Source of the DNA: a virus
Taxonomy: Duplodnaviria; Caudoviricetes
Length of the DNA stretch: 64,000 nt
Strand: one strand, 5' to 3'
IMG/VR virus record: IMGVR_UViG_3300047272_000250
Coordinates: 1-64,000 of that record
Below are positions 51 to 8,034 of this stretch, in pieces (position 1 is the stretch's first letter; each line of letters opens with the position of its first letter). The position numbers and the translations under genes were made by a program. Below the pieces are notes generated by a model. That model searched no databases. It was not told the DNA's origin and was given only the letters and a program-made list of their open reading frames with translations.

Positions 51-52
51 AG

Positions 53-125
53 CGATCTCAAAGGGAAATTGAACCCTTACTTCCACTTCGACAGAGTGGT
101 GTGCGTACCTCTACACTATGAGACC
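53..125 (-). tRNA. tRNA-Asp(GTC), no encoded CCA
   Basis: Acceptor GGTCTCA/TGAGATC, anticodon arm CCACT-CTGTCGA-AGTGG, T arm AAGGG-TTCAATTT-CCCTT. Confidence 0.9.
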
Positions 126-476
126 TTATTTATTTTTTGGCTTATTGATTGATCGCATGTACGTTCTGTGTCTATGACAGTTTGAACAAACAATCTCACA
201 TTTTTCTATCTCTTGCTTTATCTTATCAAGACCAACATTTTTATGAGCATTGCCACCTATCTGAAAGCTTTTATCAGACAAATGATCAAAGTCTAGAACG
301 TGTGGCGGATAAGATATCCCGCAATCAGTACAAACAGAATTTGCTAGCTTATAGTCCCTTATGTAGGTTCTATTCTTATTACGTCGATCTTTTGTACGGG
401 CTTGCGTTAATTCTTTATTTCTTTCGTACCAAGCTTTTTGTGCTGCTTTTTGTGCTAATGGATCTTTATATGGCAT
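126..476 (-). CDS. HNH endonuclease (Zn-binding CxxC type)
   Basis: CTDC...FDH...CSNCHRHRT motif with a basic N-terminus; stop codon abuts tRNA-Asp +1. Confidence 0.85.
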   Translation of the reverse strand: MPYKDPLAQKAAQKAWYERNKELTQARTKDRRNKNRTYIRDYKLANSVCTDCGISYPPHVLDFDHLSDKSFQIGGNAHKNVGLDKIKQEIEKCEIVCSNCHRHRTYMRSINKPKNK

Positions 477-2583: not shown

Positions 2584-2635
2584 TATTAGCCCCTATCGAC
2601 TTCATATCTAATTCTACCATGCTTAATACCTCATG

Positions 2636-2766
2636 AAAAGGGGGTCGTATATACCTGCGATTTCCATTAGCACATGACGTAGCTGAACTTCCATCTTCAT
2701 CCGAACTCATTACCGAGCTAGGGTGGTATTCGTAACTATAGCATCCTAAGAATGTATATACGACCC
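2636..2766 (-). ncRNA. Candidate structured ncRNA directly 3' of tRNA-Ile
   Basis: 13-bp perfect closing stem GGGTCGTATATAC/GTATATACGACCC enclosing about 100 non-coding nt, followed by TTTT. Confidence 0.55.
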
Positions 2767-2769
2767 TTG

Positions 2770-2844
2770 TCCGCCAGGTTGGATTTGAACCAACGATTCA
2801 TACCTTATAAGAGTATTTCCAAAACCAAACTAGGATACTGGCGG
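2770..2844 (-). tRNA. tRNA-Ile(TAT), no encoded CCA
   Basis: Acceptor CCGCCAG/CTGGCGG with discriminator A, anticodon arm ATACT-CTTATAA-GGTAT, T arm GTTGG-TTCAAAT-CCAAC. Confidence 0.9.
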
Positions 2845-3237
2845 TTTATTTAAATATTTTTTAGCACTATCCAATAAATTAATATCATCATTTAAAAGAC
2901 CTATTGCAGTATTGCAATTACTACATAATACACCACGTATACATTTTCCGCAAGAGAACGTATTATCATTGCAGCATTTATGGTCGTGATCTATATGCTT
3001 TGCATCATTTACTTTACATATCCAGCATTTTCCATTATATTTACTAAGCATTTTATCGTAGGCCTCTTTTGTTGTGTGATGCCTTTTAAATCTTCTTGGA
3101 TCATAGCCCAATATTTCATTATCTTTAGCTCTTTTATTCCTACGATATTCATTAGCTGCTAGCCTACATTTATCACAGGGTTTTTCTTTATTTGCGCCAT
3201 GAGTTATATAACCTGAATAAGTTCCACAATTTACCAT
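2830..3237 (-). CDS. Endonuclease VII-family (His-Me finger) nuclease, probable homing endonuclease
   Basis: CWIC...HIDHDH...IRGVLCSNCNTAIG motif; ATG at 3237 is 6 nt from TGATATAAT (leaderless); last 15 nt overlap tRNA-Ile. Confidence 0.88.
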   Translation of the reverse strand: MVNCGTYSGYITHGANKEKPCDKCRLAANEYRRNKRAKDNEILGYDPRRFKRHHTTKEAYDKMLSKYNGKCWICKVNDAKHIDHDHKCCNDNTFSCGKCIRGVLCSNCNTAIGLLNDDINLLDSAKKYLNKPPVS

Positions 3238-3243
3238 ATACAC

Positions 3244-3252
3244 ATTATATCA
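3244..3252 (-). promoter_or_regulatory. Extended -10 promoter
   Basis: TGATATAAT. Confidence 0.7.
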
Positions 3253-3272
3253 TAAAAAATGTATCATAATAG

Positions 3273-3301
3273 AAAGGTGGTAGGAAAATCCTACCACCTT
3301 T
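3273..3301. terminator. Intrinsic terminator, possibly bidirectional
   Basis: Perfect inverted repeat AAAGGTGGTAGGA-AAA-TCCTACCACCTTT. Confidence 0.85.
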
Positions 3302-6234: not shown

Positions 6235-8034
6235 TTAAATTATGCCCATATTCTCAAGCGCATCTGCTAATTCTTCTGGCATTCTTCTAGGTGGTCTAAC
6301 CACGTTATTTTGCTTCTGTTGTTTTTCCATTTCCTCTAGGTAATTATCTCTCTGTAATTCCCTAAATGTATGGATCTCTACTTCTTTATTCTCTGTTCTC
6401 TTAGAATGATACATGGCATTATAGATAGCCCCGCAAACTGCGTCCGCTAAGTCTTTAGATCCCTTTCTTGGGTGGTCTACTCTATCTCTAATAATACGAA
6501 GTTGTAGCATTTCATCAATAAGCAATTGAATTGCTGGACCCTTAACTCTTTCTTCTGCAATGATAAGCGCAAAGTCTTCGTAGTGTTTCTTGGCTACTGA
6601 TAGAAGTTCTGTGTTTACTCCATAACCCTTTAGCTGTTGCATCATGTCATGTGAGTTCCATCTATCGAATGTAGAAAGCTTTAAGTTAAATCCCCGCTGT
6701 TTTAGGGAGACGATGTAATCCTTTACTTCAGTAAAGTCTACGCTCTTAGAAGCAGTTGGAGTCCAATATCTTACTGCATCTACGACAACAACTGGAGCTG
6801 TCTGGGCATACTCATTACCCACCTTCATGTTAACCCACTTATCTACGTGAGCCATAGCAACGGCACAATGGTCATGCTTCTGTGCAAGGTCAATGTGTAA
6901 GAAGTATTCCTTGTCTGGCAGTGGCTGGAACCAGTCTGCGAATCTACTTGTGTCGTCTACGGCTAGGTTTGGATTATTAAATGCAGCCTCAACCTTTTCT
7001 CTAGACTTAAAGAATGCATCCACAGCTTCTGGTGGCATGCAGGCAAATCTAGATAGGGCGTCTTCAGCATTTCTATAAAACTCAATCTTGAAGTCCTCAA
7101 TACTTCTGGTAGGGTTAATCTCCCATGTTGGCCTCTTCAGGGCGTATACATTTGGGATCTTGTAGGCAACAATTCTGTCCTCTTCCCACTGAATACTAAA
7201 CTTATTCCCTGGCTCATCTTCTGGCAGGTCTGGGTTCAAGATAAATGTGTGTGACTGGATTACAACTTCCTTCTGAGAAATTACTTCCTCATACTTTTGT
7301 TGAATAAAGTCATTCTTAAAACGAGGGAATGATAGTAGGATTAGTTTACCAAAGTCTGGAAAACGTGATGACACAGATGCACGATACATGTCATAGATAG
7401 CAGAAGCTGTTTTAGACTGATCATGTCCTGTTGTAGACTCTAGGGCAAAGCCTGAAATTTCGTCAAGGACCACAACCATTACGTTATATCCTTCCCAGGC
7501 TTCTCTTTCTGAGTGTCCTGAGTGTACTGTAATGTTCTTCGGGAACTCTACGCTTCCCGCCTTGGCGTTGTATTTACCAACAAACCATGGAGACTTATCT
7601 AGTCTAGCCTTAAATCCCTTAAAGAAAACGTTGTTTGCCTGTACTGCGTTGATAGCAATATTAAGAATATCGATAGAGTCGCCTGAAGGCTTGCCATAAT
7701 ATGTTGCTGGATCTTTTAGACATAGCAGTAGGTATGAAATATAAGCAGCGGCAATAGTAGATGTATAGTCCTTACCAGAACCCTTACCAAGCTGGAAGAT
7801 AACTTCGTTACAGGTTTGCTTCCATCTCTTCTCACCCTCTTCTTCTCCCAGCCATCTGTGCAATGTATCTCTTTTATAAATCTGAGTCATTGCCTTAAGC
7901 ATTGTGTACTGGTTATCTGATAGTGGTGGTAGACCAAGATACTTAGTATCTGTAACAAACTCAGCTAAGTCTACGGGGACTTCTTCGAATTCATCATCCT
8001 GTAATGCGTCTAAAAAATCGTCTAAGTTAAGCAT
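6235..8034 (-). CDS. terL: Terminase large subunit
   Basis: Walker A GKGSGKD, Walker B VVVLDE, nuclease motifs HIDLA...D and KDLADA. Confidence 0.92.
   Translation of the reverse strand: MLNLDDFLDALQDDEFEEVPVDLAEFVTDTKYLGLPPLSDNQYTMLKAMTQIYKRDTLHRWLGEEEGEKRWKQTCNEVIFQLGKGSGKDYTSTIAAAYISYLLLCLKDPATYYGKPSGDSIDILNIAINAVQANNVFFKGFKARLDKSPWFVGKYNAKAGSVEFPKNITVHSGHSEREAWEGYNVMVVVLDEISGFALESTTGHDQSKTASAIYDMYRASVSSRFPDFGKLILLSFPRFKNDFIQQKYEEVISQKEVVIQSHTFILNPDLPEDEPGNKFSIQWEEDRIVAYKIPNVYALKRPTWEINPTRSIEDFKIEFYRNAEDALSRFACMPPEAVDAFFKSREKVEAAFNNPNLAVDDTSRFADWFQPLPDKEYFLHIDLAQKHDHCAVAMAHVDKWVNMKVGNEYAQTAPVVVVDAVRYWTPTASKSVDFTEVKDYIVSLKQRGFNLKLSTFDRWNSHDMMQQLKGYGVNTELLSVAKKHYEDFALIIAEERVKGPAIQLLIDEMLQLRIIRDRVDHPRKGSKDLADAVCGAIYNAMYHSKRTENKEVEIHTFRELQRDNYLEEMEKQQKQNNVVRPPRRMPEELADALENMGII

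Follow-up and report, generated by a model that had tools for sequence, protein, structure and literature searches.

How does a phage gene for a potentially harmful nuclease come to end inside the tRNA gene that follows it, and is the overlap a device to control the nuclease? The question is raised by a locus in a freshwater phage represented by a 104,393-bp IMG/VR record, of which the first 64 kb (64,000 nucleotides) are called the window here. The genome has 127-bp terminal repeats, a GC content of 40.2% and nine tRNA genes, and nearly all of its genes are encoded by the minus strand. At a distance of about 3 kb downstream from the gene for the terminase large subunit (6235-8034), an ORF of 135 amino acids encoding an EndoVII-type (beta-beta-alpha-Me, zinc-binding) nuclease (2830-3237(-); Pfam PF02945) starts with the ATG at 3237, with an alternative GTG at 3243, and stops with the TAG at 2830-2832. 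ARAGORN placed a tRNA-Ile(UAU) gene with a C1-G72 acceptor pair, discriminator A and no encoded CCA at 2769-2844(-), and the Rfam tRNA model matched positions 2770-2844(-) over its full length with 56.9 bits. The predicted tRNA-Ile features comprise the cloverleaf, the conserved tertiary positions, the anticodon UAU, A37 and discriminator A73. Both genes share 15 nt (2830-2844(-)), in which tRNA nucleotides 1-15 also serve as codons P132, P133, V134 and S135 and the TAG. On the minus strand the junction reads ...AAT AAA CCG CCA GTA TCC TAG, where CCGCCAG forms the 5' strand of the acceptor stem, U8 and A9 follow, and UCC-UAG begins the D arm. An earlier, sequence-only reading of this DNA had assigned the terminal P-P-V-S-stop to the acceptor stem and the start of the D arm, and ARAGORN, Rfam and the junction itself agree with it exactly.

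The same reading had found the gene seemingly AT-richer than its neighbours, as would fit a recent acquisition. At 31.9% GC, compared to 40.2 ± 3.4% in a set of 125 genomic ORFs (z -2.5), the nuclease ORF is indeed the third lowest, and its recent arrival is supported by the low GC content together with the sporadic, tree-discordant distribution described below. Six of its seven Ile codons are ATA, the codon decoded by the tRNA fused to the gene. Pooled over 10 homologs, whose counts are not independent, ATA accounts for 45 of 83 Ile codons, compared to 22% across the genome and 27.6% among other genes of low GC3. A second tRNA-Ile(UAU) of quite different sequence and without a nuclease gene upstream is located outside the window (G000 80130-80205(-)), so that the phage has two AUA readers.

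The protein matched Pfam Endonuclease_7 (PF02945) with an E-value of 1.2e-16 and 60.8 bits (cut-off 23.6), the domain ending at residue 131, and a PHROG annotated as endonuclease VII with an E-value of 3e-23. For residues 3-39, the match is to the tail of WhiB-like phage PHROGs. H84, D85, H86, N109 and six cysteines are invariant across 12 homologs. A profile built from these homologs matched residues 6-72 of the 157 residues of T4 endonuclease VII (E 4e-8) and, more weakly, the restriction enzyme Hpy99I. T4 EndoVII was also the top structure in a Foldseek comparison with the PDB, although the match was weak (TM 0.33, E 8e-3). In the AF2 model (pLDDT 77) the last helix ends at residue 129, and the tail encoded by the tRNA is modelled as coil; 5-7 residues separate the last helix of the core from the end of the protein, and the four tRNA-encoded residues lie beyond both the Pfam domain and this helix. 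As the T4 match is confined to residues 6-72, the EndoVII catalytic core is present and the C-terminal half is missing. It is the C-terminal half of T4 EndoVII that builds the domain-swapped dimer, which binds four-way junctions, and the C-terminal helical domain for such a dimer is lacking here. At its N-terminus the nuclease carries a 50-residue Cys/His module that is absent from T4 EndoVII. A core without the C-terminal half and with an added N-terminal module would fit a nuclease directed to a sequence better than a resolvase acting on junctions.

A vertically inherited housekeeping resolvase of the EndoVII type, which clears branched DNA before packaging and overlaps the tRNA merely as a result of genome compaction, would account for several observations. 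The protein shares its Pfam family with T4 gp49 and is under purifying selection, most carriers have the gene about 280 bp past the pair of terminase and 83-aa genes, and overlaps of ORFs with tRNAs are frequent in this family of phages. The distribution of the gene argues against such a role. No close nuclease homolog was found in the best 80 terminase relatives (67-86% identity), most of which have a tRNA(CAU) in the corresponding slot, and a complete relative of 106,882 bp, whose slot likewise holds just a tRNA(CAU), contains no nuclease homolog anywhere in its genome. Complete genome G001 already suggests that packaging proceeds normally in nuclease-free relatives. On an approximate terminase tree (FastTree, 71 rows), the eight carriers require eight gains or losses among 60 informative rows. 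Nuclease and terminase do not co-diverge; their pairwise identities are uncorrelated (r -0.09), and discordant pairs include L009/L012 with 88% against 64% and the window/L002 with 67% against 79%, where the 79% is that of the nuclease. Given also the missing C-terminal domain and a predicted promoter of its own that, as shown below, is carried into three different contexts, we regard a housekeeping resolvase as highly improbable. The sporadic, discordant pattern is the signature of a putative mobile accessory element.

Comparison with nuclease-free alleles revealed collinear swaps. The 715 bp between positions 3300 and 2586 of the window correspond to only 238 bp in L018 (10896-11133), which contain a hairpin, a tRNA(CAU) and a stem element like the one found here; likewise, L009 4349-4892 corresponds to L037 8034-8139. 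The left edge of the cassette lies 2-4 nt past the stop codon of the upstream gene and the right edge coincides with the 3' end of the tRNA. Neither a duplicated tRNA 5' half nor a leftover tRNA fragment was detected upstream of the cassette. Two hallmarks of homing genes are found at this locus, namely close relatives with a clean 'empty' version of this site and a gene history that does not follow the carrier genome's, as seen from the tree, the r of -0.09 and the low GC content. The explanation that we favor, with a probability of roughly 0.6, is a mobile cassette of a homing-type nuclease and a tRNA, in which coupling to RNase P is a side effect. What weighs against it is that ordinary recombination shuffling the cassettes would produce the same distribution.

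To describe the cassette, we turn to its 5' edge. The upstream three-gene module ends with a hairpin and T-run read from the sequence (GGTGGTAGGA-TTT-TCCTACCACC followed by TTTCTATT; 3273-3300(-)), which probably blocks read-through into the cassette; the nuclease-free relative L018 has a different hairpin at the matching position. The adjacent 5' edge (3244-3269(-)) holds a predicted promoter composed of TTATGATACA, a spacer of 6 nt (4 nt in relatives) and TTATGATATAAT, and includes the extended -10 box TGATATAAT (3244-3252(-)). This element is kept in all 10 cassettes compared and in three genomic contexts, while the sequence farther upstream differs. The octamer TTATGATA occurs twice at the 5' edge, its second copy overlapping the -10 box. 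The distance between the starts of the two copies is 16 nt in the window and 14 nt in relatives, and the repeat, which is likewise present in 10/10 cassettes and three contexts, could be an operator or a candidate recognition element. Between -10 box and start codon lies the 6-nt spacer GTGTAT, and no Shine-Dalgarno sequence precedes the ATG (3235-3243(-)), suggesting a start of the leaderless type. The arrangement TATAAT-N6-ATG is present in all homologs, where it is visible in frame as 'YNxxM'. On the coding strand of the genome there are 12 TGnTATAAT boxes, and an ATG follows after 6 nt in two cases only, both of them nuclease genes, the EndoVII-type nuclease and an HNH gene at 126-476. A consensus promoter and terminator scan listed neither the extended -10 box, which has no -35 element, nor the hairpin at 3273-3300; since its promoter calls were no better than those on shuffled sequences, it carries no weight either way.

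Several features suggest that nuclease ORF and tRNA are likely to share one transcript: the single conserved -10 box, the upstream hairpin, the lack of an internal promoter signal and the folding of tRNA-Ile(UAU) into its cloverleaf within a 301-nt context. No terminator was found between ORF and tRNA. A tRNA promoter inside the 3' part of the ORF was considered as well and rejected, because synonymous-site identity among 10 homologs is flat (0.5-0.6) as far as the overlap, without excess conservation, so that nothing points to a promoter hidden in the ORF. The primary transcript would likely consist of the leaderless ORF and the tRNA. Downstream of the tRNA, folding predicts a terminator-like 13-bp stem (GGGTCGTATATAC / GTATATACGACCC) around about 100 nt, followed by CCCCCTTTTC (2630-2766(-)). 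The cassette can be described as a compact unit of extended -10 box, 6 nt, ATG of the leaderless type, nuclease, tRNA and terminator-like stem, as far as its sequence tells. The stem element itself belongs to the tRNA slot and not to the cassette, as a homologous element follows the tRNA(CAU) of L018. It comprises 13 bp in the window and 9 bp in L018 (11010-11100), encloses about 60-100 nt and is followed by a U-tract. Its interior shares a TTAGGATG..TAGTTAC core, it is present behind the slot tRNA in carriers and non-carriers, and it is too large for a simple terminator. The gene right after the slot tRNA starts with GTATAAT-6 nt-ATG, again of the leaderless type, in some relatives and with an AAGGAG-type leader in others (L009, L010, L012, L014, L034, L037, L043 and L075 versus L002, L006, L011, L046, L047 and L069).

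A protein-based scan of IMG/VR yielded seven loci and a scan with an exact 30-base tRNA pattern nine stretches. Together with the window these represent seven distinct cassettes of type A, all with TATAAT-N6-ATG and the 15-nt overlap. Type A nucleases are 64-82% identical to each other, and the tRNA differs only at D-loop nucleotides 16-17. The type A tRNA was behind a nuclease in all nine IMG/VR stretches and never found nuclease-free, although diverged nuclease-free copies could have been missed by the exact pattern. In type B (L007), a nuclease of 70% identity is joined to a different tRNA-Ile(UAU) by an overlap of 10 nt, with tRNA U8-A9-G10 as stop codon. Type C comprises L002 (79% identical) and L006 (74%), the closest alleles to the nuclease of the window. 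Here, the ORF has its own TAA and is separated by 26 nt including a TATAAT-like box from a tRNA(CAU), and the nuclease is a simple insertion ahead of this tRNA. Promoter and leaderless layout are kept in all three types. At the DNA level, the GenBank phage collection yielded a 90-bp match only.

A metagenome scan, which re-found types A and B, provided 75 EndoVII-like loci with enough downstream sequence to judge. Among these, only loci at least 45% identical to the query directly precede a tRNA, with identities of 45-58% in the wider clade. When overlaps are given as negative and spacers as positive numbers of nucleotides, its junctions are -10 (L102, L106), +4 (L101) and +8 (L103) with tRNA-Asn, -10 with tRNA-Thr (L104) and -10 with tRNA-Val (L115). 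Most of these loci have the -10 box 6 nt ahead of the ATG (L101, L102, L104, L106), and the proteins bear a different N-terminal zinc module. The Asn-linked proteins have the same aligned end whether they overlap the tRNA or are followed by a spacer; in this group the spacer appears to come and go, and the protein end is constant. Adjacency to a tRNA was not found for the homologs in the cultured phages TunaTartare (Streptomyces) and HTVC100P (Pelagibacter). A paralogous nuclease of 45-50% identity is located near a tRNA-Gly in L069 (9128-9212; the same in L079 and L083). Five nucleotides past its stop codon begins a tRNA-like stretch of 85 nt with an 8-bp acceptor-like stem, a TTCGAAT T-loop and CCA, which received no tRNA call by ARAGORN or Rfam (E <= 1) and may be a decayed or unusual tRNA.

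A parallel arrangement involving an unrelated fold is present in the same window. The HNH nuclease gene at 126-476(-), with the layout TGCTATAAT, 6 nt and ATG, precedes a tRNA-Asp gene (52-125(-)), and its TAA is the last triplet ahead of tRNA position +1. Relatives of the HNH gene in IMG/VR (58-60%) end 3-6 nt upstream of a tRNA-Glu(UUC). Several more distant relatives have the layout of -10 box, 6 nt and ATG without a tRNA, and one of the distant relatives (L212) overlaps a tRNA(CAU) by about 39 nt, its TAA being U36-A37-A38 in the anticodon loop.

Given these junctions, the possible function of the overlap can be assessed. The sequence-only reading had proposed that RNase P processing removes the stop codon, so that each transcript gives either mature tRNA or full-length nuclease; the stalled product would be tagged through tmRNA and degraded, capping expression of a toxic enzyme. 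Rescue of stop-less mRNAs by tmRNA is established knowledge. If one transcript spans ORF and tRNA, cutting by RNase P at +1 would indeed remove the stop codon, and this part of the proposal holds insofar as co-transcription is likely. A switch selected for this purpose would also be in accordance with the single promoter behind a hairpin and without a sign of an internal one, the folding of the tRNA in context, the identical overlap in seven cassettes, the renewed appearance of overlaps with other tRNAs (Ile in type B; Asn, Thr and Val at -10) and the leaderless start, which suggests low expression. Spaced nuclease alleles and overlaps of non-nuclease ORFs argue against a selected, nuclease-specific design. 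Conservation of the overlap in homologs, proposed in that reading as a test, gave a divided answer: the 15 nt are retained in seven cassettes, but the closest alleles L002 and L006 stop 26 nt early, their spacer holding the TATAAT-like box, and in the Asn-linked group both -10 and +4/+8 junctions occur without a change in protein length. The HNH family, moreover, docks at 0 to +6.

As a control for the junction, we inspected 113 distinct tRNA contexts in the loci fetched for comparison. ORFs ending at or inside tRNAs were common there and not confined to nucleases. In the same phage family, non-nuclease ORFs of about 480-503 amino acids overlap tRNA(CAU) by 23 or 10 nt and 95-aa ORFs overlap tRNA-Asn by 10 nt (L058 11572, L061 7692, L064 11521, L089 6530 and L081 10539; L058 11935, L061 8058 and L064 11887). 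An ORF of 115 amino acids abuts tRNA-Arg, and many other ORFs stop 2-8 nt short of a tRNA. The overlap lengths of 10, 15 and 23 nt are simply set by the first in-frame stops available in tRNA 5' regions. Furthermore, the four residues that would be lost lie outside the fold, and only an unstructured tail is affected. An overlap is also not needed to shut off an upstream gene. In the secG-leuU transcript of E. coli, RNase P cleavage at tRNA +1 leads to exonucleolytic decay of the secG mRNA with a half-life of <30 s, while the precursor has a half-life of 17 min in an rnpA mutant (PMC2241853). This decay occurs despite a 14-nt spacer, making an overlap unnecessary for the shut-off. By analogy, shut-off would accompany any ORF-tRNA co-transcript, and the overlap would only stop ribosomes on processed RNA from finishing. 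We consider a selected off switch unlikely. RNase P coupling is a plausible by-product which the nuclease cassette would have in common with other ORF-tRNA junctions, and not a nuclease-specific device.

The tRNA could also be the selected part of the cassette, with the nuclease serving to spread or amplify either an AUA reader that does not depend on TilS or a substitute for a tRNA that host defence attacks, and the AUA-rich nuclease being translated only once the tRNA has accumulated. In agreement with this, the tRNA is near-invariant while the nuclease diverges, UAU takes the place of CAU in the slot, and SegB is reported to amplify anti-defence tRNA loci (PMC13096335). The ATA-richness of the nuclease genes fits too, although the pooled codon counts lack independence. 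Such cargo would, however, be carried by a genome that already has another tRNA-Ile(UAU) without a nuclease, and the isotype is not fixed, since related nucleases precede Asn, Thr, Val and CAU tRNAs. We judge selection for the tRNA to be rather improbable, less so than a housekeeping resolvase and more so than a selected switch.

Under the favored explanation of a mobile nuclease and tRNA cassette, the nuclease would most likely act as a free-standing homing endonuclease. In co-infecting relatives it would cut the allele that lacks the nuclease, in or close to the tRNA slot, and the ensuing repair would introduce the nuclease gene along with its tightly linked tRNA. The imported tRNA may substitute for the displaced tRNA(CAU); that it replaces it functionally, whether the latter is an AUA-reading tRNA of the Ile2 type or a tRNA-Met, is a guess. 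The stop codon inside the tRNA would follow from docking of the cassettes directly on tRNA 5' ends. As tRNAs supply ready stops (U8-A9-G10; here U13-A14-G15), an ORF can shed its own stop and spacer while the folded protein remains unharmed. A likely consequence would be a common precursor of tRNA and nuclease. By cutting at +1, RNase P would free the tRNA and leave a stop-less, unprotected mRNA, and cleavage together with the leaderless start would hold nuclease output low. A broader proposal is that tRNA 5' leaders are a general dock for selfish nucleases of unrelated folds, EndoVII and HNH in this phage. The nuclease would then be translated only from unprocessed pre-tRNA as a leaderless message, RNase P would set its dose, processed RNA of the overlapping forms could not release protein, and the cassette would 'pay rent' with a useful tRNA. 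This generalization is tentative and, on balance, doubtful.

Both free-standing nucleases located in tRNA regions of phages and decay of an upstream mRNA coupled to RNase P are already known. Our literature searches, which covered a minority of subscription journals, retrieved no phage precedent combining RNase P control with a stop codon located within a tRNA. Nor did they retrieve a description of an EndoVII-type clade docked on tRNA 5' ends, of its constant leaderless layout, of tRNA-supplied stops or of the replacement of tRNA(CAU) by a tRNA-Ile(UAU) linked to a nuclease. Free-standing homing nucleases shape the mosaics of phage genomes, and phage tRNA sets are now tied to host range and defence evasion. 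If true, a clade of nucleases that dock on tRNA 5' ends and bring their own tRNA allele would show how phages swap tRNA repertoires. With its shared precursor, the locus would be a simple case, open to testing, of one RNA contested by tRNA maturation and by expression of a potentially harmful nuclease. Even on an ordinary reading, the locus is a warning for annotation: in these phages, several kinds of genuine ORFs have their ends within tRNA genes, and pipelines that forbid overlaps of CDS and tRNA would mis-call them.

Among known systems, T4 endonuclease VII (gp49; PDB 1EN7/1E7D) has the same zinc-binding beta-beta-alpha-Me catalytic core. In contrast to T4 EndoVII, the nuclease described here has a C-terminal half that does not align, an extra N-terminal Cys/His module and a sporadic rather than core distribution. 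The tRNA region of phage T5 harbors HNH (His-Me finger) nucleases between its tRNA genes that are not known from relatives. In mitochondria, tRNA punctuation sets the 3' end of the upstream mRNA by excision of the tRNA, ORF and tRNA may overlap, and polyadenylation completes U or UA to UAA. Unlike in mitochondria, the cleaved mRNA of the present locus would end with ...AAU AAA, and added A residues cannot make a stop codon. With secG-leuU the cassette shares an ORF that is followed at once by a tRNA on a single, here predicted, transcript. The differences are that the 14-nt spacer of secG-leuU keeps the stop codon on the mRNA and that secG is a housekeeping gene with a normal leader and ribosome-binding site. 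The nearest documented system is SegB of T4, a free-standing GIY-YIG homing endonuclease encoded in the T4 tRNA cluster and missing from relatives (PMC2330249). The available text of that paper describes neither an overlap with a tRNA nor a leaderless start, both of which the present cassette displays. The fold differs as well, being of the EndoVII/His-Me type in our case, and cleavage at the tRNA slot by the nuclease of the window is a proposal, whereas SegB was shown at the bench to cut tRNA genes and drives preferred inheritance of the tRNA region (PMC2330249). The tRNA alleles beside SegB differ between carriers and non-carriers (PMC2330249), and in both phages a free-standing nuclease gene is lodged among the tRNA genes.
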